IMG/VR virus record: IMGVR_UViG_3300037602_000024
Location: 1-42,489 of that record
Length of the DNA: 42,489 nt
DNA from: a virus
Taxonomy: Duplodnaviria > Caudoviricetes
Direction: 5' to 3' (one strand)
Shown here: positions 1,358 to 42,489 of the stretch, piece after piece
Layout: each line of letters opens with the position of its first letter
Numbering within the stretch: position 1 is the stretch's first letter
Position numbers and translations under genes: made by a program
The notes under the pieces: generated by a model
Database searches by the model: none
The model's input: only the letters and a program-made list of their open reading frames with translations
What the model was told of the DNA's origin: nothing

Positions 1358-1692
1358 AACGCTATCTCCATTGCGGTGCGGAAAAGATCGTCAATAGCCT
1401 CATCTGTAAACGTGCCGCCTTTTAACGCTTCTATAAAGGGGCTTGTACGTTCGATTACTATGGCGCGCTCCCATACAATCTGTGCCTCAGCATTCGATGC
1501 CGCGATCGCCTCCGCCTCCGCCAACTTCCCCGCCCGAAACAGCGCTAACCGGATTTGCGCTGGAGAACAAACCATCCCTTTCCTTTCCGCGGAAAGAGCC
1601 AAGGCGCGGAGCTCATCGGCGCTTACGCTCGCGGGCGTATCGGCAACAATCATCTTCCGTCCAGATCGGTCAAAGGTTAGATGGCGGCTCAT
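1354..1692 (-). CDS. Tail fibre assembly-like small protein
   Basis: Start at 1692 gives an ATGA overlap; SPAQIRLAL...WERAIVIERTSPFI...IDDLF pattern is common next to phage fibre genes. Confidence 0.6.
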   Translation of the reverse strand: MSRHLTFDRSGRKMIVADTPASVSADELRALALSAERKGMVCSPAQIRLALFRAGKLAEAEAIAASNAEAQIVWERAIVIERTSPFIEALKGGTFTDEAIDDLFRTAMEIAL

Positions 1693-23417: not shown

Positions 23418-23786
23418 TCAATCGAAGGACTTGTTCATGGCGAGGCGGTGCGGCGCGCCGATCTTTCGCGAAGTGGCGTTGAACTTGGCGACGATTGCAA
23501 GCTCCAAATTGATCCCTTCCCGCTGTGCGATAAGGTCCAGATACAGGAACACGTCCGCGATTTCATCTTCCAGCGCCTCGCGCAATTCTTCCTCCGTCTC
23601 CTTGTTTCCGGGGATACCGTCGCGCGCCCGGTTGAGCTTCTTGACGATATTGGCAAGCTCCCCGACTTCGCCGCACAGCGCCGTGGTCCAGTCGCTGAGC
23701 GACCAATCCTCCAGCTTGTGATTGAAGCCATTCTCCGCTTCGGAGCGGGAGCGGTTGGTGAGAGAGATAGCTTTGAATGCGGGCAT
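23418..23786 (-). CDS. MazG-like nucleotide pyrophosphohydrolase
   Basis: LCGEVGELANIVKK...LEDEIADVFLYL (EXXE...EXXD); GGAGG RBS before ATG 23786. Confidence 0.85.
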   Translation of the reverse strand: MPAFKAISLTNRSRSEAENGFNHKLEDWSLSDWTTALCGEVGELANIVKKLNRARDGIPGNKETEEELREALEDEIADVFLYLDLIAQREGINLELAIVAKFNATSRKIGAPHRLAMNKSFD

Positions 23787-23797
23787 GATCGCCTCCG

Positions 23798-24259
23798 TTA
23801 GATGGTCTTTTTCCATTCGTCCAGCGCGCGAAGCGTGACGCTTTCGGGAACGTCGTGGCCCTGGGTATGGGCCTGCGCGAACCACAGCTTGATTTCGTCA
23901 AGCTCCTTCCGGGCGTTCGCCACTTCGACCATGAGCCGGTGCTTTTCGATCCGCTCCTTGAGCGCTGTGCAGCGCCGCAGGCCGTTGGCCGCCTTCATTC
24001 CTTCGATCGTCGCTTCCAGGGTTGCGATCTTCTGCGCCTGGGCTTCGATCCGGACGGCCTGTTCATCCTCCCAGGCTTCCGGCAGCGGCGGCTGCGGGTC
24101 AAGGGATGTCCTGTCGCTAACGAAGGAGAGGCTGCCCCCATCAACGATGCAGAGGAAGTAATCGCAACCGCTCCGCGCAATATGGGCCATCACCCATGTC
24201 TTTCCCTTCCCCTCCACATACGAAGGGAAGGGGCTCTTGTAAGGCGTGATATTGTTCAT
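23798..24259 (-). CDS. Hypothetical protein with a C-terminal coiled coil
   Basis: TGATG overlap with the exonuclease stop. Confidence 0.65.
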   Translation of the reverse strand: MNNITPYKSPFPSYVEGKGKTWVMAHIARSGCDYFLCIVDGGSLSFVSDRTSLDPQPPLPEAWEDEQAVRIEAQAQKIATLEATIEGMKAANGLRRCTALKERIEKHRLMVEVANARKELDEIKLWFAQAHTQGHDVPESVTLRALDEWKKTI

Positions 24260-24801
24260 CAGATGATTCCTCTCTGGTTAAGTTCGGCCCAGCAGCGGGT
24301 CAGGGCTTCAGTGTCCGTCCGCGCCCGATGAGCGCCAGAAAACGGAGTGCCGAAAAGGTGTTCATGGAGCGCGCTAAGGTTGAGGCGATAGCCTTTGAGC
24401 CATTCCGTCGCCTCCACCGTGCAGATGCCTTCCGGCGGTTCGCTAAATTCCGCGTTGGCACGTCGGAACTCATTGCGCATCATGTCCAGATCGAAGGACA
24501 GGTTATGGGCCACGACGACGGAAGCCACGCCGAAAATGTCGTTGATCCGCTCCACGTATTCGGAGAAGGGCGGCTTTCCTTCCACATCTTCCGGCTTTAT
24601 GCCTGTGATCTTGGTGATTTCCTCCGTGATCGGGACAGGCGGCTTGCACAGGAATTCGAGCTCGCCGACGATCGATCCATCATCCTTGACCAGCAGGCCG
24701 CAGAACTCGATGACGTGCGGCTGCTTTTCGAGCGGCCTGGCCGAATTCTTGACCAGGCCTGTCGTTTCCGTGTCGAAGACGATTGCGAGCCGGTCACTCA
24801 T
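24259..24801 (-). CDS. DEDDh 3'-5' exonuclease (Pol III epsilon-like)
   Basis: FDTETTGL, VAHNLSFD, AHRARTD motifs. Confidence 0.92.
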   Translation of the reverse strand: MSDRLAIVFDTETTGLVKNSARPLEKQPHVIEFCGLLVKDDGSIVGELEFLCKPPVPITEEITKITGIKPEDVEGKPPFSEYVERINDIFGVASVVVAHNLSFDLDMMRNEFRRANAEFSEPPEGICTVEATEWLKGYRLNLSALHEHLFGTPFSGAHRARTDTEALTRCWAELNQRGII

Positions 24802-25138
24802 CCTTGTCTCCAAACGTCTGGTGCCACAATTCATTGATCTTTGCCTTTTGGCTCGCCTCAACGTCGATTTCCGCGAGCATAGCAGCATACACCGCCAGAT
24901 CGTCCAGACTGTCTGCGTGGCCGCCCTTCTCCCACGCGTTGGCGTATCGGGTGAGCTTGACGACGATCAGCATCAGAATGTGGAACCGGGCATGATCCAT
25001 CTCGCTCCGGAGGGAAACGCCCTCCGGAAACAGAGCGGTCATCACCGGCCCAACCTTGCGCCAGTTCTCGCCATACGTCGGGTTGCGATCCCGAAAGATG
25101 GCCGCGGCTTTTTCCAGCCGCCATGCGACATCAGCCAT
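24794..25138 (-). CDS. All-helical nucleotide-modification-associated protein (DUF6378/Nmad1-like; NTP-pyrophosphatase-like)
   Basis: AAAIFRDRNPTYG...VVKLTRY...HADSLDDLAVYAAML pattern. Confidence 0.6.
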   Translation of the reverse strand: MADVAWRLEKAAAIFRDRNPTYGENWRKVGPVMTALFPEGVSLRSEMDHARFHILMLIVVKLTRYANAWEKGGHADSLDDLAVYAAMLAEIDVEASQKAKINELWHQTFGDKDE

Positions 25139-25622
25139 TGCTCGCCTCCCGCTCCCGACGCCAGATGAACTTGATCGACTGGCCGCCGAACAGGTCATAG
25201 ATTTCATAGTGATATGTCCGCCCGTTCTCAACCAAGTAGGAGTTGGTGTGGGAGAGGGTTGACATCACCTGGCGCAAGCTCATCCGGCTATCGGCGTGCT
25301 TCCAATGGGCGGGCGTTTCGTTCTTTTCCATGTGAATGCCGATGTGGGAGAGGAACGGCAGACCGGTCTTGAAATCCGGCTTCGTCATCAGCCAGTGCGG
25401 CCCTTGCAGGTAGGTGAGGATTTCGAGCTCAATGCCGAGATCGTAGTTGAAGCGGAGATGGGCCTTTGACTCCATCCGCTTCCCGCCGTCAACCCAGACC
25501 GCGCCGGTGACTTCGTCTTCAACCCACTTCGCGCCCGCCAATCCTAGCTCAACCATCACATCGTAGGCCTGCGCTTCGTCGTGCGCGTAAAATGCAATCT
25601 GATCCATTTTCATGTGCTTCAT
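25131..25622 (-). CDS. VOC/glyoxalase-superfamily protein (epimerase/isomerase-like)
   Basis: MDQIAF...IELEILTY..GPHW...LSHIGIH; ATGA overlap with the SDR stop. Confidence 0.65.
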   Translation of the reverse strand: MKHMKMDQIAFYAHDEAQAYDVMVELGLAGAKWVEDEVTGAVWVDGGKRMESKAHLRFNYDLGIELEILTYLQGPHWLMTKPDFKTGLPFLSHIGIHMEKNETPAHWKHADSRMSLRQVMSTLSHTNSYLVENGRTYHYEIYDLFGGQSIKFIWRREREASNG

Positions 25623-26311
25623 GCTCCATAAGGAAGAATGCACCCGGCCAGGTACTTGTGGCGCTCGGGTGTTGAAAGAAGAAAGGCAAGGAATTCTGCC
25701 ACCGCGTCCGGGTCCGTTTCCTCTCCCGCGGGAAGGGCGTTCAGTTGGTATTGCGCCGCTTCCTCCGGCGTCCAGCCGCGAAGCTCGCAAACGCGGCCTT
25801 CGATATAGTTGGACATGCCGGTGCCGCGCAGCTTATTCGGGGATATGCCGAAAACAGTGATGTCGTGCGTCTTCTTGAGCTCGCGCGCCATCTGCAGCGT
25901 CAGGATATGGGCCGCGCCCTTGCTGGCGTTGTAGGCGGCGCTATGCGTCATCGGCATGTGGCTGGCGTTCGAGACGATATTGGCGACGGTGGCCGGACGC
26001 TTCATGCGGCTGGCGTTAATGAGCTCCCTGACCACCAGCCATGGCGCGCGGGCGTTGACGTTCATCAGCCGGTCCCATTCGTTAATCGGGATTTCTTCCA
26101 GCCAGTCGATGTAGTTGACGCCCGCGCAGTTCACGACGACATCGACGCCCAGCTGGCAGTTTTCTGTCGCAGACCAGACATTGACCTCACTCGCCAAGTT
26201 CACGCCGGTTTCCAGCGACCATCCTTCAACGGACCATCCGTCATCGACCAGCCTTTGGTAAATCCTCTGGCCCAAGCCGGACGTGTGTCCAGTAACGATA
26301 GCGTGCTTCAT
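25619..26311 (-). CDS. Short-chain dehydrogenase/reductase
   Basis: IVTGHTSGLG, VNCAG, NIVS and YNASK catalytic motifs. Confidence 0.92.
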   Translation of the reverse strand: MKHAIVTGHTSGLGQRIYQRLVDDGWSVEGWSLETGVNLASEVNVWSATENCQLGVDVVVNCAGVNYIDWLEEIPINEWDRLMNVNARAPWLVVRELINASRMKRPATVANIVSNASHMPMTHSAAYNASKGAAHILTLQMARELKKTHDITVFGISPNKLRGTGMSNYIEGRVCELRGWTPEEAAQYQLNALPAGEETDPDAVAEFLAFLLSTPERHKYLAGCILPYGA

Positions 26312-26312
26312 C

Positions 26313-26798
26313 TCAGTATCCTCCGTGCCGGACTTGCCAGCAGTTAAAGCCAAGCTCCCGCCAGCGCTCAACCATTCCGTCGCGATCCTCCAGGATGAAG
26401 GCGACGGCGCTTTTCACGTCCACTTCTTCGTGGCCCAGATGCCGCTGCTGAGCGGCGTGCCATTCAGAAAGAAGGCGCGGTTTCAGGTCGCGATCCGGCG
26501 TGTAATCCCAGTCTGGACGCATCAGGAGCGCATCGATGTAGCCGGACAGGGCGTGCTCGCGCAGCCACTTCTCCGTGAGCCCTCTGTAGGCTTCATTCCG
26601 CCCGGTCAGGATGATCACCCGGTAATCGATCGGCACGATGGCAGCGATGAGCTCAGCCACGTCTTCGTGTACGGGATCATCCGCGCCCATCACGTGAAAA
26701 TCGTGCCACTGTCCGATTTGGGCCAGGTGGACACGGTAACGGGCGTCGGAAAGCGTTCCATCAAGGTCCACCACAATCGTCTTTCGCATTGCGCTCAT
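26313..26798 (-). CDS. HAD phosphatase (polynucleotide kinase-phosphatase C-terminal-like)
   Basis: VVDLDGTL, LTGR, LLMRP, K, EDR motifs. Confidence 0.88.
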   Translation of the reverse strand: MSAMRKTIVVDLDGTLSDARYRVHLAQIGQWHDFHVMGADDPVHEDVAELIAAIVPIDYRVIILTGRNEAYRGLTEKWLREHALSGYIDALLMRPDWDYTPDRDLKPRLLSEWHAAQQRHLGHEEVDVKSAVAFILEDRDGMVERWRELGFNCWQVRHGGY

Positions 26799-27583
26799 GA
26801 GAATGCCCTCAACTCATCGACCAGCTTTACCAGCCGGGTGCGTTCGTCTTGGCTGATCGCGCCTTCTTCCGAAGCCTTGATGATGGCAGCTTCAAGGTCG
26901 CCTGCCGCCTTGTCGAAATCCCTGTCCAGAAACATCGTGGTCCATGGGTGGACTTCCCGGACACATTCAAGCATGGCATTGGCCACATCGCGGTATTCCC
27001 CCTGTGTCCGGGAGGAAGCGCGCTTGCGAGCCGTTTCTGCCAGCGTCCGAAGGTTGAAGTGGGCCACGATGTTGGTGTGGATGTTCGTCGGCAGAACGCC
27101 GCGGGCGTCTTCGATTGCCGCTCCGGCTTTGATCAGGCTGTTGTATGCCGCGGCGATGTCGTCCATCGTTCGCGCATAGATCGCTGCCTTTTCTCCCGGC
27201 TCTTCACGCCCGGTGTCAAGGTCGATGCTCCAGTCATTTTCGATTGACGGCCCTGTGTGATAGGTCCAGCCATTGACGTTCAGAACGCGCATCGTTTGCT
27301 GGGCGTAAGAGCCAACGCGCGTGCGAACGAATTGGTGAGTGAAAGCGCGGGATACGCCGTTGATCAGGAAGGTGTAGCCGACGAACTCCCAGGAGCTTGG
27401 GATGGTGCGCGCCATGTAGCGGAGCTCTTCTTCAACCTTCGCCCAAGGCCAAGCGGCGATTTCGTCCAGCAGCCCAGGCCGCATCTCCAGCCGCGTCTGC
27501 TTCGTGAACACCAGGACGTTGGCAGCGTGCCGGGCGGGATCGAACGCTCCCGCGCCGGTGTAGTCGATCAGTTGCACTTTCAT
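26795..27583 (-). CDS. thyX: ThyX-fold (flavin-dependent thymidylate synthase-like) enzyme with altered motifs
   Basis: GVSRAFTHQFVRTRVGSYAQQTMR, EDARGVLP, NLRTL, RASSRTQGEYR. Confidence 0.85.
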   Translation of the reverse strand: MKVQLIDYTGAGAFDPARHAANVLVFTKQTRLEMRPGLLDEIAAWPWAKVEEELRYMARTIPSSWEFVGYTFLINGVSRAFTHQFVRTRVGSYAQQTMRVLNVNGWTYHTGPSIENDWSIDLDTGREEPGEKAAIYARTMDDIAAAYNSLIKAGAAIEDARGVLPTNIHTNIVAHFNLRTLAETARKRASSRTQGEYRDVANAMLECVREVHPWTTMFLDRDFDKAAGDLEAAIIKASEEGAISQDERTRLVKLVDELRAFS

Positions 27584-29854: not shown

Positions 29855-29879
29855 TTCTGGCTTTCCTTTCACTACTGTG

Positions 29880-30060
29880 TTCAGCTGGCGTAGCCCAGCA
29901 CCCTACCTATGAATGAAAAACTTTCCGGTGAAAACATTTTTCAGGCTTTTTCGAAGGCACGCGAAAAGCGAGCCTGTTAACCTATTGTTTTCATTAGATT
30001 AAAAAAAATTCAAAAAGTGTGAAAAAAAGTGTTTTCTTTTTCTGCCGCTTCAGGCACAAA
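29880..30060. promoter_or_regulatory. AT-rich divergent promoter region with phased A-tracts
   Basis: Point where the two gene arms diverge; A-runs start at 30001, 30012 and 30022; AAAAAGTGT occurs twice. Confidence 0.65.
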
Positions 30061-30207
30061 GAGATTGTGAGGACGACGAAACGCCTCGCACGGGACGGAC
30101 CGCCCAAGCATAACGGTCCACCTGGCCGGTAGGATCGGACGACGGGAGCGAAAGCAGAAGACCCCCCGACGAAAAGATGCCGACACCCTGGTTTCCGGCA
30201 GGTCAAA

Positions 30208-30263
30208 CGAAACGGACGCAAGTCCGTCGCTGGGGATGGTACCCCATGCCTGATGAGATACCA
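30208..30263 (+). ncRNA. Type II hammerhead ribozyme 1 (predicted cleavage after C30228)
   Basis: C-GAAA, stem III CGGAC-GCAA-GTCCG, UC, stem I GC.TGGGG/CCCCA.GC, CTGATGA-G; loop TGGTA pairs with 3' TACCA. Confidence 0.85.
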
Positions 30264-30333
30264 AAATGTCAAGCCTGCCTCTCGGCAGCGTCCCACACTG
30301 GGAAGCGGAGAAGGCAAGGCAAGGGAGGCCAAA

Positions 30334-30552
30334 ATGGCTTCTAAAGTTCTCTCTTTCGCGACCATCGCCGGTGGCGTTTGGATTGAAGATTTGCCGGGTG
30401 ACCATTCGGATCGCTCTGGCGCTGAGCGCTGCTTCCGCTTCGATAGCGAAGGGCGCGCTGAGTGGTGCCGACTGTCGGACCTATGGGCCGATGGCGAGCG
30501 TGTGCGGTGGTACGGCCACCAGTTGACCGCAAAGGACTTTGTTCTTTGCTAA
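30334..30552 (+). CDS. Early hypothetical protein (72 aa)
   Basis: GGGAGG RBS before ATG 30334. Confidence 0.7.
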   Translation: MASKVLSFATIAGGVWIEDLPGDHSDRSGAERCFRFDSEGRAEWCRLSDLWADGERVRWYGHQLTAKDFVLC

Positions 30553-30603: not shown

Positions 30604-31173
30604 ATGACCATCCTTACTTCCAGCCAGATTATGAAGCTCATCGCGAAAGCCGAAGGCGCTGAGCCGAAGCGCGCCTCAACGAAAGAAGCCGCCATCCGGC
30701 GCTTCAACAAGACCATGGCCGCGCAGTTCGGCCTGGACTTCTTCGCCGCGGAGAAAATCCTGAACGCGGGCAGCTACGATCTGGCGCTGAACGCGCTGGG
30801 CCTGGCCGCTGATCCGGACTGCGGCATTGAGGAAGAATACAATGAGGCAGAAGAAGAAAAACTGCTTCAGCGCGGACAAGAAGCCTTGGGCGAATACGCT
30901 CACAGCGACAAGGCGGCAGTCCCTAAAGCGAAAGGCGGCAAGCGCCGCGGTTCGCTCGCCGGGAAGGCGTTCCAGCTGGCGGCTGGCGCAACCAACCCCT
31001 ACCGCGAAAACACGCTGTCGCACGCCGCTTTCGAGCTAGTCCGCGACAACGCAGGGATTACCTTCGAAGGCTTCGTGGAGAAAGGCGGGCGCGTCCGGAC
31101 GCTGCAGGAAGACGTGAAAGCCGGGCGGGTGATCGAAGTCAAGAAGTTGATCACCGATCCGGAAGCATTCTAA
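30604..31173 (+). CDS. Early hypothetical protein (189 aa; acidic linker, basic C-terminal domain)
   Basis: AAGGA RBS; typical high-GC codon usage. Confidence 0.8.
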   Translation: MTILTSSQIMKLIAKAEGAEPKRASTKEAAIRRFNKTMAAQFGLDFFAAEKILNAGSYDLALNALGLAADPDCGIEEEYNEAEEEKLLQRGQEALGEYAHSDKAAVPKAKGGKRRGSLAGKAFQLAAGATNPYRENTLSHAAFELVRDNAGITFEGFVEKGGRVRTLQEDVKAGRVIEVKKLITDPEAF

Positions 31174-31174
31174 A

Positions 31175-31236
31175 GGCGAAACGCGGGTGCTTGCCCGCGT
31201 CTGGGCGGGCGGTTCCCGGCCGCTGATGAGCCAACC
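31175..31236 (+). ncRNA. Type II hammerhead ribozyme 2 (predicted cleavage after C31201)
   Basis: GGC-GAAA, stem III CGCGGGT-GCTT-GCCCGCG, UC, stem I TGGGCGGG/CCCGGCCG, CTGATGA-GCC; loop GGTT pairs with 3' AACC. Confidence 0.9.
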
Positions 31237-31251
31237 TAGAAGGATTTAAAA

Positions 31252-32217
31252 ATGGCACACCAAGTTGAAACGATGGCCTATGCGAATGAAGTTCCGTGGC
31301 ACGGCCTGGGCGCGCGCGTTGACCAAAGCGTCACGCCAGACGAAATGCTGAAGGCGGCTGGTCTGGATTGGGAAGTCAATCTGTGGCCGCTGACCGCCAG
31401 CGAGCCGGAAGGCGAAGAAAGCATCAAGGTTCCTGGCCGTTATGCTCTGGTGCGCTCAACCGATCGCAAGGTGCTGACCGTGACTGGAAAAAGCTGGAAG
31501 CCGCTCCAGAACCGCGAAACGCTCGAATTCATGCGGAACTACGTGGAAGCCGGTGCCGCCACGCTGGAGACGGCTGGCGCGCTTCGTGGCGGGCGCGTCG
31601 TTTGGGGGCTGGCGCGGCTCAACCATGAATTTGAAGTCGGCAAAGGCGATCGCGTCAAAGGCTATCTCCTGATCACTTCGCCGCACGAAGTCGGAAAGGC
31701 AATCACCGTCCGCGCCACGACGGTCCGTGTCGTCTGCGCCAACACGATGGCATTGGCCAACCGCACCGGGACGGTCCACTACCGCCAGGCCCACACCAGC
31801 GCCTTCGACGTGGACGCCGCCAAGGAGGCGATCGGAGACGCGCATGAGCAGCTGGCGATCGCGGAGAAGAACGCGAAAATTCTCTCCAAGCTCCAGCTTT
31901 CGCTTGATGACGCGATCGAAAAGGTGCTGGCTCCAGTCTTCGTTCCGCAGGCGCTGAAGGACGATGACTTGATGGCGTCGCTCAAGGTGCCGGAGAGCAT
32001 GCCGAAGACGCTCCAAGAGATTATTGACTCCATCGAGAGCGCGCCGGGCGCGGCGGAAATTGCGGGCACTGGCTGGGGCGTCCTGAATGGCGTCGCGCAC
32101 TGGGCGGATCACGTCCATGGCCGCGGGCAAGCGTCCCGCATGTATAATTCCTGGATGGGGCAAAACGCCGTCCGGAAGCTGGACGTTGAGCGGAAGCTGC
32201 TCGAACTGGCGGAATAA
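31252..32217 (+). CDS. DUF932-family phage/plasmid protein
   Basis: MAHQVETMAY..EVPWHGLG, AGLDWEV, ETAGALRGGR.VW, VRVVCANT, GTGWG.LNGV motifs. Confidence 0.9.
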   Translation: MAHQVETMAYANEVPWHGLGARVDQSVTPDEMLKAAGLDWEVNLWPLTASEPEGEESIKVPGRYALVRSTDRKVLTVTGKSWKPLQNRETLEFMRNYVEAGAATLETAGALRGGRVVWGLARLNHEFEVGKGDRVKGYLLITSPHEVGKAITVRATTVRVVCANTMALANRTGTVHYRQAHTSAFDVDAAKEAIGDAHEQLAIAEKNAKILSKLQLSLDDAIEKVLAPVFVPQALKDDDLMASLKVPESMPKTLQEIIDSIESAPGAAEIAGTGWGVLNGVAHWADHVHGRGQASRMYNSWMGQNAVRKLDVERKLLELAE

Positions 32218-37018: not shown

Positions 37019-39913
37019 CTACGCCTTGCTAAACGATACGACGATGGCTATTGGGCGGTAGCACGGCCTGAACCACGACACGGTGAAATCGCCAGTTGGC
37101 CCCGTCGTGTCCGGGTAATAATAGCCGAAATATGCCGACGAAAGCGGCCCAAGGGAAACGCTGCCCGCAGCGACTTCCCCGTCCATCGCGGGCGTCGGTG
37201 TCCATGCCTGATTGGGCTGGCGATCCGCGGAGAAGAGCAGGACAACACTTTCGTCCGTTGTATCCGTTCCAGCGATGCCCGTCCAGGGGTTCCCGTCATT
37301 CTGGAGCGTGCCGCTGAGGCCCGGCGTGCCGTCCCGCTGATCGACGTTCTTCAGGACAACCAGGATGCCCTGGCCGTGGCTGAACACTGGCGGTGAGGCG
37401 TCCAGGTGTAGGGTAGGCGACGGCTCATTGGCCCCGGCCACCTTCCACCACAGGAAGCCCTCCGTGGCGTACTGGCCGGAAGTCGATTGGATCGGTCCCA
37501 CCGCGTTCCAGCTAGTGTCCTGATCGTCTTCCCCGAACCAAGTGCCCGCGCCGTTGGTCGCCTGATCGATGCCCGCGAAGAACACCAGCACGTCGCCCGG
37601 CTCATGAATAGGCAGCGCCGCCAATGTATCCGTTTCGTTGATTAGGTAGGTGGCGTGCATGATGTAGGAGGCGTTCCCGCCCGCGCCCGGCACGCCGGAA
37701 AGGAAGTTAACTTCTTCCACCGGCAGACCGTTATATGTTGTAACGGCAGGATCGGAAATCAACACCATGCCGCGGATCGCGTCACCATTGTATTGCCCCG
37801 TCGCATCGACCAAACGTGCCGCGTTGATCGCCTGCAAGTCCTGGAGCCCCAGACCGCGCGGATTATCGTCCAAGCCGCCAAGGAGCGTCAGGCCGTGGTT
37901 CCATGCCCCGTTCGATCCAGCCGGGAAGCTGATATCAGCATAGGCCAGCGTGCCGGTGACGCCGATCGCGCGGAAGGCTTCGTTGGCGTCGATAGTAAGT
38001 TGCCGCGTCCATGGCGCATACTGGTCCATTTCTGGATGGTTGTAGACTGAAAGCCCGCCTTCGTAGGCGTGGAACATCAACGGCTCCGCCTTGTACGGCT
38101 GGAACACCGCCCGCGCGTAGCTGACGCTCGTGTTGATCCGCGCCACGTATTCTTCCAGACTCTGGCGCACGCTCGCCTCAACCTGAACAACGTCCGTCCA
38201 GTCGGAAACGGGGAGCGATGGATTGGCGTCACCGTAGTAGGTGCCGAAAGACCAGCACTTGATCGGGTTTGTGGCTGGGTTCAGCCATTCGGCCAGCAGG
38301 GCATCCTCCAGATCGTCCGGCGCGCTATCCACCCAAGGCTCAACCTGGATATAGGCCTGGAGGCTGGGCACATAGCCGGGCTGCTCCTCCGCGACCCAGA
38401 TCACCTTCGACATATCCCCGCCGAAGTTTGTGCGCATCCGGTCGTAAAGGATCATGTCCTGGCGCGCTTTCCAGACGCGCCCGATGTTGGAAGAAGTGCC
38501 GTAAATGGTTCCGGTGCCCCATTTAGCAACGCCTTGGTCTATGAACCAATCGGCGCTGTTCTGCCCGCTTTCAAAAAAGATTTCGTTGCCCAGCGCGATC
38601 GCCATTTCTTCAATGTCGCCCGCGTCCAACGCCGCTTTCGCGTGCGCGCAGAATGCATCGAACGCCGCCAGCGAGATATTCGGGTGCAGGTTGATCCACG
38701 GGCGCAAGTTCCAGTACGCCGCCGCGTCGATAATTGCCTCATAAGGCATAGCGTGTTCGGTCGGCACGTAGAGATAAGGCGTGCCGGCAGGAGAGCCGAT
38801 GGAGCCGGACGTGCTGGCGATGATTTCGCCGGTCCCGTCGAAAGTTCCCACCACGTCGTCAATATTTATGTAGCCGGCGCCTTGGTTCAATTCCTCCACC
38901 GTGGCCGACGCGCCGCTGCTGGCCTGCGTGATCGTCTCACCAACGGTTACTGTCGGGAAGTTTTGGCCTTGCGGCAGCGGTATGCGCCAGCGGTTGTTCA
39001 GTATATCGAATGGATCAGTGAAGCTCTCGTGCCAGGAAAGGTTCTGTGTGCTCCAGGCGTTCGCGGGGAAGGTGCTGTGATCGCGGTTGGCCTTCGTCCC
39101 CTTCATCGGACGCCACCAGACCGGGCGGTTGTCGATAGCTAGCGGGTAATAGAAGCCCTCGACCAGATCGCGGTTCAAATGCGCCGTTCCGTTACTGGCA
39201 ACATAGTCGGCAAGGTAGCGCTCATTCACCAAAGCAATCTCGGTGCCCTTGTCCACTAAGCTCTTTATGTGGACGCGGATATAGCCGGAGGAAGCCAGCG
39301 GCGGGATCGTTATTTCATATTGCGTCTTTGTCGTGCGGCCATCCAGAACTACGTTGCTTGCGTATGTCCTATTGATCCACCCGCCGCCGATGTCAACCTG
39401 AATAACGTCTATGGTAAAAGCGCCATCCGTGATAAAGTAGAATTTTCCGGAATAAGGCCCGGTGGACATATCCGGCCAACGAAGGCTGTCAATTAGAATA
39501 TAGCCGCTGCCCGGCGTAGTATCCGGCCAGCCGTTTCCATCCACCGTTCCACCGTTGACGCCGCGAACGACTTGCGCTTGGCGCAGTATATTGTCGATGT
39601 GATATCCGGGATTATTCCCTTGGTGCGGCCAATGGTTGAAGTTCATGCCTAATTCGTAGGCGGGCAACGGATCGCCTCCGGACTGAACAGCGACGCCCTT
39701 CACGCCCGGCCCTGGGGGCCACGTGTTGACGTTCCGCACACCAATCACAGGAACGTCGTTGTGATTGCCGGTAGTCCCCGCGGGAAGGATCGCCCCGCCC
39801 AAGACAGGCTCGCCATTATAAAGCGTTTGGCCTCCGCCCCCTCCACCAGTCACAGGCCGATTGCCGAAGGGAGAGCGCGGACCAGCCATGGATGAGTGGA
39901 ATGGGTTCCGCAT
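37019..39913 (-). CDS. Large virion fibre/spike with a glycoside-hydrolase-like TIM-barrel domain
   Basis: N-terminal AGPRSPFG.R...GGGGGG peptide; PWINL, ALGNEIF and HAYEGG resemble clan GH-A acid/base and nucleophile motifs; C-terminal beta domain. Confidence 0.65.
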   Translation of the reverse strand: MRNPFHSSMAGPRSPFGNRPVTGGGGGGQTLYNGEPVLGGAILPAGTTGNHNDVPVIGVRNVNTWPPGPGVKGVAVQSGGDPLPAYELGMNFNHWPHQGNNPGYHIDNILRQAQVVRGVNGGTVDGNGWPDTTPGSGYILIDSLRWPDMSTGPYSGKFYFITDGAFTIDVIQVDIGGGWINRTYASNVVLDGRTTKTQYEITIPPLASSGYIRVHIKSLVDKGTEIALVNERYLADYVASNGTAHLNRDLVEGFYYPLAIDNRPVWWRPMKGTKANRDHSTFPANAWSTQNLSWHESFTDPFDILNNRWRIPLPQGQNFPTVTVGETITQASSGASATVEELNQGAGYINIDDVVGTFDGTGEIIASTSGSIGSPAGTPYLYVPTEHAMPYEAIIDAAAYWNLRPWINLHPNISLAAFDAFCAHAKAALDAGDIEEMAIALGNEIFFESGQNSADWFIDQGVAKWGTGTIYGTSSNIGRVWKARQDMILYDRMRTNFGGDMSKVIWVAEEQPGYVPSLQAYIQVEPWVDSAPDDLEDALLAEWLNPATNPIKCWSFGTYYGDANPSLPVSDWTDVVQVEASVRQSLEEYVARINTSVSYARAVFQPYKAEPLMFHAYEGGLSVYNHPEMDQYAPWTRQLTIDANEAFRAIGVTGTLAYADISFPAGSNGAWNHGLTLLGGLDDNPRGLGLQDLQAINAARLVDATGQYNGDAIRGMVLISDPAVTTYNGLPVEEVNFLSGVPGAGGNASYIMHATYLINETDTLAALPIHEPGDVLVFFAGIDQATNGAGTWFGEDDQDTSWNAVGPIQSTSGQYATEGFLWWKVAGANEPSPTLHLDASPPVFSHGQGILVVLKNVDQRDGTPGLSGTLQNDGNPWTGIAGTDTTDESVVLLFSADRQPNQAWTPTPAMDGEVAAGSVSLGPLSSAYFGYYYPDTTGPTGDFTVSWFRPCYRPIAIVVSFSKA

Positions 39914-39915
39914 TG

Positions 39916-40626
39916 TTACGCCCTAAATGCGATCGTCCAGCCGTAGCTGAGCGCGGTTCCGCTAGCGGTAACGCTCAGCACGCCGGTGCTTCCCGCCGCA
40001 GCCTGGAGAAACGAGAATAGCGCCAGCCCGGCTGTGCCGTTTGTGGCTTCATGGATTTCGGTGTACGTCGCGCTGCTGTATGTGTTCGATGTGTACTGGC
40101 CCACCGCGAACAGGATAAGAGCATTTGAAACCGTCGTTGTAACTGCTGGCGCTGAACAGGTTGCGCCGAAGCCCGCGACCGCCGCAGGAGCGGCCACAGC
40201 GTCCACCGCGGACGCTCCGCGAACGATGCCCACAGACACCGCGAACGGGTTGAACGGGACGCTGCACGTGACGTCAAACGTCGTTATGCCCGGAATGTCG
40301 CCCGGCTGCACTTGGTAGTAGAAAGCGCCCATGGCGTAGTTACTGAGTGTGGCAATCTGCCCCACCTTTGTTCCGACGCTCATGGAGTGAACAACGGTCG
40401 CAGGAGAGCCGCCGTTGTTCCGGTTCGCAGTTGAAACAACGACAAAATCCCCGGACTGTGCGTTGGCGGGGATAGTAACAGAAACGGCGTTCGGGTCGCC
40501 ATTGACGCCCGCTACGATATCCGTCAGCACGGATGGCGGACCGCCTCCGCCGCCAGCTATGAGGCGCGGACCGAATGGCGAGGAAATCCCCGCCAAAGGC
40601 GATCGGACGCCAGACCAGTTAGGCAT
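39916..40626 (-). CDS. Head fibre-like virion protein
   Basis: MPNWSGVRSPLAGISSPFGPR...GGGGG N-terminus, then a Thr/Ala/Gly-rich beta domain. Confidence 0.65.
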   Translation of the reverse strand: MPNWSGVRSPLAGISSPFGPRLIAGGGGGPPSVLTDIVAGVNGDPNAVSVTIPANAQSGDFVVVSTANRNNGGSPATVVHSMSVGTKVGQIATLSNYAMGAFYYQVQPGDIPGITTFDVTCSVPFNPFAVSVGIVRGASAVDAVAAPAAVAGFGATCSAPAVTTTVSNALILFAVGQYTSNTYSSATYTEIHEATNGTAGLALFSFLQAAAGSTGVLSVTASGTALSYGWTIAFRA

Positions 40627-40897
40627 GGCTCACGCTAACTGCGCCATCAACTGCGGAATAGAAGAACAGCCGGACGAAGCCCGCGCCCGGCCACATCTTA
40701 TCCATTGTGCGATCGTCGCCTTGGCCGGAAAGGTAGCGGTGAGCCCCGGCGAAGCTGGCCGGAGGCGTTGCGTCGGTGGAGCCCATCGCGTAGATCGGTG
40801 CTTTCCCCATATTCATGAAAGACTGATCGCCAGTGATGTCGGTTGTTCCCGCGGGCGTCCAGGTCTTGGCTGGAAGGGTTACTGTTGTAGTAGTCAT
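40619..40897 (-). CDS. Head spike base-like protein (GTA head-spike type)
   Basis: 92 aa, beta-rich; TLPAKTWT...F.N.G...RYLSGQG...WPG...VSHA; directly upstream of the two fibre genes. Confidence 0.55.
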   Translation of the reverse strand: MTTTTVTLPAKTWTPAGTTDITGDQSFMNMGKAPIYAMGSTDATPPASFAGAHRYLSGQGDDRTMDKMWPGAGFVRLFFYSAVDGAVSVSHA

Positions 40898-41110
40898 TTA
40901 AACTTCTCCTGTCTTGCGCTGAGCGGCGTTTGCCTCAAGGTCGTCACCTTTTGCGTTGGTCATCTCGGCGGCTTGTATCTCCGCTGCGCCTAACTGGATA
41001 GCCTCAGCGGTTCTCTTGAACTTAATCGCCTGCTCCAGCGCTGCGCCAGGAATGTTAGCTGCCTCAAGTAATTGGAGAGCCAATGCTGCAAATTCTTTAC
41101 TTTCCATCAT
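40898..41110 (-). CDS. Small helical protein after the tailspike (possible fibre chaperone)
   Basis: TGATG overlap with the tailspike stop. Confidence 0.6.
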   Translation of the reverse strand: MMESKEFAALALQLLEAANIPGAALEQAIKFKRTAEAIQLGAAEIQAAEMTNAKGDDLEANAAQRKTGEV

Positions 41111-42489
41111 CACCAAGTGCTTCCCATCAGCGGTATATAGTAGGTCGTGCCGGTGTCATCCTTGATAGGGATGTACCGATTGGCCGAAAAACTACCCGGG
41201 ACAGATGCGGCAGTCGATGAGTAGCCCAACCGGAGAAGGCCCGCGCCTTTTGGCAAAACGCGGAAGTCGATGTCCGTATCGACGCCTGCGGCCGACAGGG
41301 TTACACGACCAGAGCCCGATATGCCCGGATTGATGGCCAGACGATTCACGTCCGCCGCTCCAGCGGTAGGCGCGATAACGGTGAACAAGGTGTTTTCCGT
41401 CGTCAGATCGGACTGCACGCCCTTTACCGAGAACTGCGCATTCTCAAAAATTAATCGAGTTTGAGTGACCGACGATGAACCCTCGCCGCGGATGGTGCCG
41501 GTCCTGTTGTTTATGCCGTTTCCGTTTTTCCAAATAGCCTCATGGCCACGGGCGAACTCAATCGCCGACGCGGTCCCGGTCCCGGCCCCGTCTGTGCCCT
41601 CTAATGCATTAGCGGCAAAAACGAGACCTTTGTTGAACCGGTTGCTCGCTGCCGTCTTGGCACTATTTACGATACCAATGGCGACACTGACATTGGTTAA
41701 GGTAGCGCCAGAACCCGCAGCAACCAACTCTTGGGCAGTTTCGCCGCCAACACCGATCCAGGCAGCAGCAGTGGTGCCAGTGGCCCCCATTTCATATGGA
41801 GACACGGTTTGCAGGGTAGTCGTGGAGCAAGTGTCCAACTCTATGGACGTGGTAAACTGGTTGTCCTGTGTATTGACCGCATGGCCGTAGAATGCCCAGC
41901 TTGACTTCTTGTTGCCCGTATCTGTGTTGTCATTGTGAGAGTATGCGGCAACGCCGATAGCGGCCTTTTCCCCAATGCGCACGTTATCGCTGGTGCGGCT
42001 CCCTGCGGCTATCGCCAAGCCGCCAATCGTTTGCGCGACCGAAAGCTGCGCGCGGCTCTCGAAGTAGGTCATAAACCCACCTGCCTCTGCACCGAGCCAC
42101 GACTTATTTGCCCCGGGCACCTGTTCGCCGGTTGTTAAAGCGGCCCCCGATCCAATGAATACACGACCGGGGAACCTCTCGACCGCGACACCCTTCGTGT
42201 CGCCCTCGAAGAAGTCCAGAGTGGCCACAAAATCGCCGCCGCCCGTGAGAGCGGCCCACGTGCCCGCCGGATCGAACTTAAATTTGGCGTTGGTTGCAGT
42301 GTAAGCACTTGAAAACGTGTAGCTGGCCGGGGGAACCGGCACCAACACCGTGCCGCCCGCCGCATCCGCAGCCACAAACGCCGCCCGATCATCCGTAACT
42401 CCGTCGCCGACAGCGCCAAAATGCTGCACCAAGACAGGCCCGCCAATGTCCACATCGCTCCAAGTGATGGAGCTTCCAGCACCGGACGC
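41110..42489 (-). CDS. Tailspike/tail fibre, C-terminal part (starts at 337 across the junction)
   Basis: FGAVGDGVTDDRAAF pectate-lyase-like beta-helix entry motif; open to the contig end. Confidence 0.85.
   Translation of the reverse strand, partial: ASGAGSSITWSDVDIGGPVLVQHFGAVGDGVTDDRAAFVAADAAGGTVLVPVPPASYTFSSAYTATNAKFKFDPAGTWAALTGGGDFVATLDFFEGDTKGVAVERFPGRVFIGSGAALTTGEQVPGANKSWLGAEAGGFMTYFESRAQLSVAQTIGGLAIAAGSRTSDNVRIGEKAAIGVAAYSHNDNTDTGNKKSSWAFYGHAVNTQDNQFTTSIELDTCSTTTLQTVSPYEMGATGTTAAAWIGVGGETAQELVAAGSGATLTNVSVAIGIVNSAKTAASNRFNKGLVFAANALEGTDGAGTGTASAIEFARGHEAIWKNGNGINNRTGTIRGEGSSSVTQTRLIFENAQFSVKGVQSDLTTENTLFTVIAPTAGAADVNRLAINPGISGSGRVTLSAAGVDTDIDFRVLPKGAGLLRLGYSSTAASVPGSFSANRYIPIKDDTGTTYYIPLMGSTW
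42363..42489. repeat. Terminal direct repeat, right copy
   Basis: Identical to 1..127. Confidence 0.95.

Follow-up and report, generated by a model that had tools for sequence, protein, structure and literature searches.

Organization of the locus

The window analysed here, a stretch of 42,489 nucleotides, represents the whole of a 42.5-kb virus record that carries direct terminal repeats and is estimated to be 76% complete. The runs in which it is found are pond metagenomes, all of them DNA. Genes of the window include structural ones of tailed phages and those for a DnaE polymerase, ThyX and a homologue of GcrA; since a GcrA homologue is present and the best matches of the DUF932 protein are those of Rhizobium and Aminobacter phages, the host is presumably an alphaproteobacterium. 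No cultured close relative was found, blastn yielding short matches only and the gp34-like protein matching at 35% at most; the Rfam search of the Aminobacter phage Erebus region gave neither a hammerhead nor a leader match. Relatives (loci designated L below) were collected by means of the gp34-like protein (38 loci) and of a DUF932 alignment (80 more), with further copies coming from DNA pattern searches; loci obtained with DUF932 as the single query proved too distant and were left aside.

The element under study, a type II hammerhead ribozyme (HH1), is situated between a leftward replication arm, which includes the gp34-like gene ending at position 29872, and a run of small rightward genes that appears to be the early arm. 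On the same plus strand, a predicted early promoter (30032..30060) is composed of a T-rich -35 element (TTTTCT), a 17-nt spacer and a -10-like CACAAA, and would direct transcription from about G30067. The motif occurs at the same place in syntenic phages and ahead of several early genes, in up to four copies per phage, with one exact copy in the window. A sigma70 consensus scan of the window found no promoter. The -10-like element has no final T, a feature reported to be common in alphaproteobacterial promoters (PMC7703639).

Downstream of HH1, a pair of window-specific hairpins (30273..30342, plus strand; z = -4.4 versus shuffles) precedes the first gene, and the second of them is predicted to contain both the Shine-Dalgarno sequence and the start codon of this gene, so that a role in its translational control is possible from the modelled fold. 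The hairpins have no homologue among 361 loci; a 17-nt match in L215 lies inside a gene and was treated as chance. The first gene, orf72 (30334..30552), has no Pfam or PHROG match and two homologues, of 85% and 63% identity. The next, orf189 (30604..31173), codes for an early protein conserved in relatives (25-39% identity in 18 loci by tblastn, with Atlas matches all under 0.9). It is followed by a second, ordinary type II hammerhead, HH2 (31174..31240), with a 3-bp stem II, a 4-bp pseudoknot, a predicted cut after 31201 and an Rfam score of 36.1 bits, under the cut-off of 37. The predicted cut of HH2 falls 50 nt before the start of a DUF932 gene (31252..32217; Pfam PF06067, E 2e-37), for which a literature search found no function; all these features are likewise on the plus strand.

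No tRNA or tmRNA was detected by the scan performed, and Rfam at E up to 1 revealed no ribozyme family in the window other than the two hammerheads. As to the remainder of the window, a nucleotide-metabolism block on the minus strand (23418-27583) contains MazG-like, exonuclease, short-chain dehydrogenase, PNKP-type HAD phosphatase and ThyX genes and possibly serves base modification. Also on the minus strand, a 964-aa ORF (37019-39913) has no Pfam or PHROG match, and its neighbours (39916-42453) are likewise unmatched. In an independent run of a different study (X2), one 1000-nt contig spans 29700-30494 with zero differences at a depth of 323, and the DNA around HH1 does not look misassembled.

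Fold and classification of HH1

Analysis of the plus strand at 30208..30263 supports a complete hammerhead fold of type II, in which stem II consists of one pair and loop I forms a pseudoknot with the 3' tail. The sequence-only reading had placed a core in type II order at this site, and every coordinate that it gave matches the sequence. C11.1 and the GAAA box (G12-A15.1) occupy 30208..30212 (C30208 and 30209-30212, respectively) according to both the descriptor and Rfam. Stem III (30212..30227) comprises 6 bp (30212-30217/30222-30227), the A15.1-U16.1 pair (A30212-U30227) included, is capped by a GCAA loop, and was formed with a probability of 0.99-1.0 in all six transcript lengths folded. 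On the hammerhead consensus, cleavage is predicted at the bond 30228..30229, 3' of the GUC triplet 30226-30228 (C17 = 30228). Stem I (30229..30249) has 7 bp, a bulged U30247 and a 6-nt loop, AUGGUA (30236-30241), and is followed by the core CUGAUGA with G10.1 (30250..30257). Both conserved segments of the core, CUGANGA (30250-30256) and GAAA, are free of substitutions. Stem II had been described as the pair C30208-G30257 alone, and the flanking A30207 and A30258, which do not pair with each other, bear this out. The proposed 5-bp pseudoknot between UACCA (30259..30263) and UGGUA of loop I (30237-30241) was confirmed as well, the variable pair being kept in 7/7 distinct homologous modules as three pair types (U-A in three, C-G in three and G-C in one), with three pairs of the helix invariant and partly fixed by the search pattern.

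HH1 thus possesses the NUH triplet, the three stems around the core, the G10.1-C11.1 pair and the tertiary contact of stem I with stem II that define a hammerhead, and its closed stems I and III together with an open stem II place it in type II. In type III hammerheads the GAAA lies 3' of stem II and stem III is open, whereas in HH1 the GAAA-stem III segment forms a closed hairpin 5' of the cut, and the sequence after 30263 contains no GAAA. The PK hammerhead, as presented by Zhan 2024 (PMC11300833), shares with HH1 the core and a pseudoknot helix in the stem II region; there, however, the pseudoknot replaces helix II and originates from an extra stem-loop, helix IV. HH1 retains G10.1-C11.1, pairs its tail with loop I and has no helix IV, which rules out its assignment to this class as described in that report.

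The ribozyme itself is of a known kind, its build having been described and shown to be active by Perreault 2011 (PMC3088659). The metagenomic type II hammerhead of Fig. 4 of that paper has the same core, strand order, one-pair stem II and loop I/tail pseudoknot, and cleaves at more than 1.2 per minute at 0.5 mM Mg2+. Its activity was lost when the pseudoknot was broken and rescued by compensatory mutation, was lost on addition of a second stem II pair, and fell about 20-fold when the pseudoknot was cut from 6 to 4 bp. The phage context is shared too, with tandem copies flanking short blocks of prophage genes. HH1 differs in having 5 instead of 6 pseudoknot pairs and a score under the Rfam cut-off, in its place at the 3' end of a structured RNA that is uncatalogued, and in having type III orthologues at the same locus, of which sections 6-8 and 11 of PMC3088659 make no mention. 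The supplementary alignments of that paper may hold relatives of HH1.

A strict type II pattern, in which the first stem II pair was fixed, occurs in an estimated ~780 viral-contig stretches. Among the matches listed (120 loci), 122 of 127 distinct type II matches were structured; stem II was a single pair in 4 of these 122 listed copies, and the one-pair form is therefore uncommon, not unique. A pseudoknot of at least 4 bp was present in 63/122 of the listed copies versus 4/122 in a shifted control. In the case of dinucleotide-shuffled windows, a loose type II descriptor matched 25 of 200, a figure that dropped to 7 of 200 when a longer stem III was demanded. Once stem I was filtered by energy, core and stems were seen in 16 of 1000 shuffles, of which two had a pseudoknot of at least 4 bp as well and none had one of at least 5 bp; the real window contains two sites that combine core, stems and pseudoknot. 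A chance origin of the HH1 match is excluded.

The search with the Rfam Hammerhead_II model that the sequence-only reading had called for turned out favourably as to the fold and unfavourably as to the score: RF02276 aligns over its full length (30205-30266) and scores 31.4 bits, which corresponds to E 4.9e-4 when 1.5 kb is searched and to 0.014 for the window as a whole. As this is below the gathering score of 37, HH1 is absent from a default Rfam scan, and at the gathering score the whole window gives 0 matches. One must bear in mind that the model expects two stem II pairs and that the homologue in L280 scores 36.7. The sub-threshold score limits the formal annotation of HH1, not its topology.

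A conserved structured leader RNA

Between the predicted start site and HH1, on the plus strand, an optional 5' hairpin (30067..30089; predicted fold) is followed by a conserved structured leader RNA of 113 nt (30092..30204), which covaries and belongs to no Rfam family. The slot of the optional hairpin holds a hairpin of different sequence in L209, L211, L283 and L293 and none in L368. The leader is built of a hairpin with an invariant 11-nt loop (30103-30113), a stem (30126-30133/30188-30199) around a GUUU bulge and a GNRA-capped loop (30147-30161); the 11-nt loop, the GNRA-capped A-rich loop and the GUUU bulge are the invariant or near-invariant unpaired blocks. By blastn, it shares 71-77% identity with the same slot in L209/L211/L283 and L293, and the copies in L368 and L371 were added by pattern search.

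A covariance model (R1) built from five copies gave 7 strong matches in 62 sources, including that in L371 (E 2.5e-8), which was outside the training set. When six copies were aligned, both partners were found to vary in 13 of 28 pairs, a level reached by 0/500 shuffles, and 91% of the cells are paired compared with 73% in shuffles and 31-54% in slid controls; these figures derive from six sequences, two of which are near-identical, and from an alignment that was fitted to the model and is partly misaligned in L371 by an insertion. Taken alone, the leader folds no better than shuffles (z -0.4 to -0.5).

No Rfam family matched the leader, either in the window (E up to 10) or in the homologous loci (E up to 1-2), and we call it uncatalogued in the sense that it has no Rfam 15 family and no description in the literature searched, which largely excluded subscription papers. 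Pattern searches for further copies returned 2 real and 1 doubtful among 28 matches, and subsequently 6 real among 9; in bacterial and archaeal genomes, 0/31 matches were real. Several candidates were set aside: L227 is a false model match inside a coding region, L212 shares the bulged stem and failed the model, and L255 shares the bulged stem only (E 0.12) and was not counted. The region of L255 concerned (1496-1630, minus strand), on a 543-kb (jumbo) phage contig, is an RNA that comes just after a promoter-like sequence and is followed by a tRNA cluster.

A proposed cassette of leader and hammerhead

As read by eye, a hammerhead follows each of the seven strong leader copies, namely type II in the window and L371 and type III in L209, L211, L283, L293 and L368. 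The type II hammerhead of L371 (minus strand) pairs its stem II best, again by eye, with one extra U after the core. When the slot of the first promoter was compared across 33 syntenic loci, 11 were found to have a long leader with a hammerhead, seven of them of the leader family of the window and four with other leaders, while 16 have neither, showing a short UTR, mostly of about 20-40 nt, without a hammerhead core. The remaining six could not be used, as they were too short or lacked a usable motif. Part of the 33 loci were re-anchored by eye, and L224, L228 and L285 were read a second time in this way. Because many loci are near-duplicates (the 11 correspond to about 9 lineages), this split does not amount to 27 independent cases.

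Since the leader stands directly behind the predicted promoter, a hammerhead comes after all seven copies and the slots divide 11 to 16, HH1 is likely to free an RNA of about 162 nt. We therefore favour, at a probability of roughly 0.6, the reading that HH1 cuts after C30228 in the predicted first early transcript and releases a conserved structured RNA of this size from the downstream mRNA. The predicted products are a 162-nt RNA (30067-30228) and a 973-nt orf72-orf189 RNA bounded by HH2. The simplest reading of the arrangement is a cassette, in which a small RNA gene at the promoter is joined to a detaching ribozyme that gives gene 1 an mRNA end of its own.

Under the proposed mechanism, host RNA polymerase would start at about 30067 and the leader would fold first, its last helix sequestering 30200-30203, which could otherwise mispair with the core. 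The pseudoknot would keep stems I and II parallel and so substitute for a longer stem II. After cleavage, the small RNA would end in the stem III hairpin and carry a 2',3'-cyclic phosphate; the orf72-orf189 mRNA would begin within the hairpin of stem I, with a 5'-OH. HH2 would act likewise for DUF932, and leader and hammerhead would constitute one cassette between promoter and gene 1. It is seemingly the cut, rather than the order of the ribozyme, that is selected, because the slot holds either type II or type III.

Other leaders of ~110-250 nt occupy the slot between promoter and hammerhead in L280 (1530-1700, minus), L216 (930-1025, minus), L292 (1730-1880, plus), L277 (1540-1790, minus) and L212 (5660-5800, minus, sharing the bulged stem); these may be further small-RNA families.

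As regards the many hammerheads of phage genomes, a review terms most such ribozymes functional orphans (PMC6765202). Relatives with the same promoter and first-gene slot that have either leader and hammerhead or neither offer a natural comparison for the release of a small RNA.

Competing folds and alternative roles

The removed leader need not be a product in its own right. HH1 might only shape the mRNA end, with the leader acting in cis while attached, for instance by antitermination or as a switch controlling cleavage; promoter-proximal antiterminator RNAs do exist, as in the case of HK022 put. The engineered insulator RiboJ is a parallel, as it is likewise placed between promoter and ribosome-binding site, loses its leader and retains a 5' hairpin, and in one study it increased mRNA levels roughly twofold and those of protein two- to tenfold (PMC6206723). 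In these phages, too, hammerheads without a leader stand ~50-60 nt before many start codons. In RiboJ, however, the removed leader is waste, whereas that of HH1 is conserved and covaries, and its invariant unpaired loops suggest a binding partner. A switch could be provided by a rival helix, 30199-30202/30249-30252, which involves the 3' end of the leader and breaks the core, with a probability of 0.01-0.94 depending on transcript length in pseudoknot-blind folding; but it is specific to the window, and type III relatives without it keep the leader. Moreover, in 16 relatives, which have neither leader nor ribozyme, gene 1 would be expressed from a promoter of the same type. We consider such a purely local function rather unlikely. 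In the modelled folds, the rival helix constitutes a caveat and a possible control point, with which the last helix of the leader competes and would form first.

The cut might instead expose the downstream early mRNA to decay as a timed shut-off. The precedent is glmS in Bacillus subtilis, the 5'-OH product of which is degraded by RNase J1 (PMC11780869). This reading appears distinctly unlikely, as the 3' product of HH1 begins base-paired within stem I in the predicted fold, and as ribozymes are located directly before ribosome-binding sites, where relatives have extra promoters; because of the latter, stabilisation is the effect we would favour. Alphaproteobacteria do have RNase J. The processing of polycistrons by ribozymes has been suggested and is unproven (PMC6765202).

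Another view, that HH1 is a slow or decaying copy and that the downstream hairpins took over the control of orf72, draws on the same rival fold, on the core-proximal pairs of stem I, which reach a probability of only 0.02-0.42 in pseudoknot-blind folds, on the window-specific hairpins 3' of HH1 and on the sub-threshold Rfam score. Against it stand an unsubstituted core, a perfect stem III and a second syntenic type II copy (L280) that shares the geometry of bulge and loop and in which a pseudoknot pair is compensated, and we regard this view as very unlikely.

That HH1 and HH2 excise a two-gene RNA of 973 nt (5'-OH and cyclic phosphate ends) which is then circularised is hardly probable at all: the two ribozymes do share orientation, their ends are compatible and the genome encodes a PNKP-type HAD phosphatase, but the number of hammerheads in the fetched stretch of relatives ranges from 0 to 6, a search in PMC3088659 for spliced or circular products from tandem hammerheads of phages found none, and the phosphatase is present in 17/19 relatives tested irrespective of a first-promoter ribozyme, for which reason a link of HH1 to it was rejected.

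Type II and type III forms of one module

A gap-free 40-nt module, extending from the cleavage triplet to the pseudoknot strand, is common to nine loci; after two modules identical to that of L372 were dropped, seven distinct ones were left. Two of them are of type II (window, L280) and five of type III (L209/L211/L283, L216, L277, L293 and L368, of which L277 is non-syntenic); all have a single G-C stem II pair, and the type III modules form the same pseudoknot. The module of HH1 is identical at 35/40 positions to those of the type III ribozymes of L211 and L216, which were first found through the neighbouring gp34-like protein, compared with 32/40 for L280 and 23/40 for HH2. Among the matches listed, 123 ordinary phage type II modules share a median of 26/40 and a maximum of 31/40 positions with HH1. 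The module pattern itself was real in 3/3 matches in viral contigs and 6/10 in metagenomes.

As the shared module exists in both types and that of HH1 is closer to type III, these data indicate a natural permutation switch at one locus, in which HH1 likely descends from the type III module present in its relatives, the GAAA-stem III segment having been relocated to the 5' side. In a gp34-like tree of 33 rows, type II and type III are intermingled, and a single clade is rejected for either of them (16 rows; AU p 0.006 and 0.0005), evidence that is weakened by phage mosaicism and by the tree being that of a neighbouring gene. Type III occurs both inside and outside the clade of the window, and an AA before C-GAAA is shared by HH1 and the type III loop II while being found in 0/129 ordinary type II copies among the matches listed; the direction from III to II is therefore favoured. 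Such a course fits a tandem duplication with trimming, a model raised for ribozymes by Eckert 2023 (PMC10085705), where convergence, duplication and rearrangement are named as options for the origin of permutations. The direction and the number of switch events are not proven, as mosaic exchange is possible and there is no clear 3' remnant. The AGGU at 30200 was rejected as proof of a type III remnant, since the leader helix also explains it (AGAG/CUCU in L293), and an outer helix (30197-30203/30273-30279) that would extend stem II is unsupported in relatives. By occurring in both a type II and a type III form at one locus, the 40-nt module bears directly on how permutations arise, and together with the likely job of releasing an uncatalogued RNA, this switch is what HH1 adds to a known ribozyme.

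A broader reading may be put forward tentatively, although we hold it to be doubtful as a whole. In it, the leader would represent a novel class of early small RNA in phages, the first to be made and an abundant one. It would act in trans, a decoy for a host-defence protein by way of the invariant 11-nt loop and the GNRA module being one example, and would be matured by an interchangeable hammerhead; HH1 would be a circular permutation of type III into type II, caught at a single orthologous locus, in keeping with the prediction of the tandem-duplication model. The 11-nt loop ends in CAUAA, which we take to be like the anticodon loop of tRNA-Met and a lead for a decoy role; no full complement of this loop occurs elsewhere in the window.

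Further hammerheads in early regions

A hammerhead ~50-85 nt before DUF932 recurs in L207, L208, L211, L292 and L293. In the fetched stretches, loci with several early promoter motifs have 0-1 hammerheads (L207, L299, L289) and loci with 1-2 motifs have 4-6 (L290, L292, L293), as if a 5' end of its own could be given to each early gene by either a ribozyme or a promoter. HH2 also has short unannotated matches near the genome end of the cultured Streptomyces phages phiELB20, Issmi, Paedore, Loofah, Spernnie and Hank144, and these are probably type II hammerheads.
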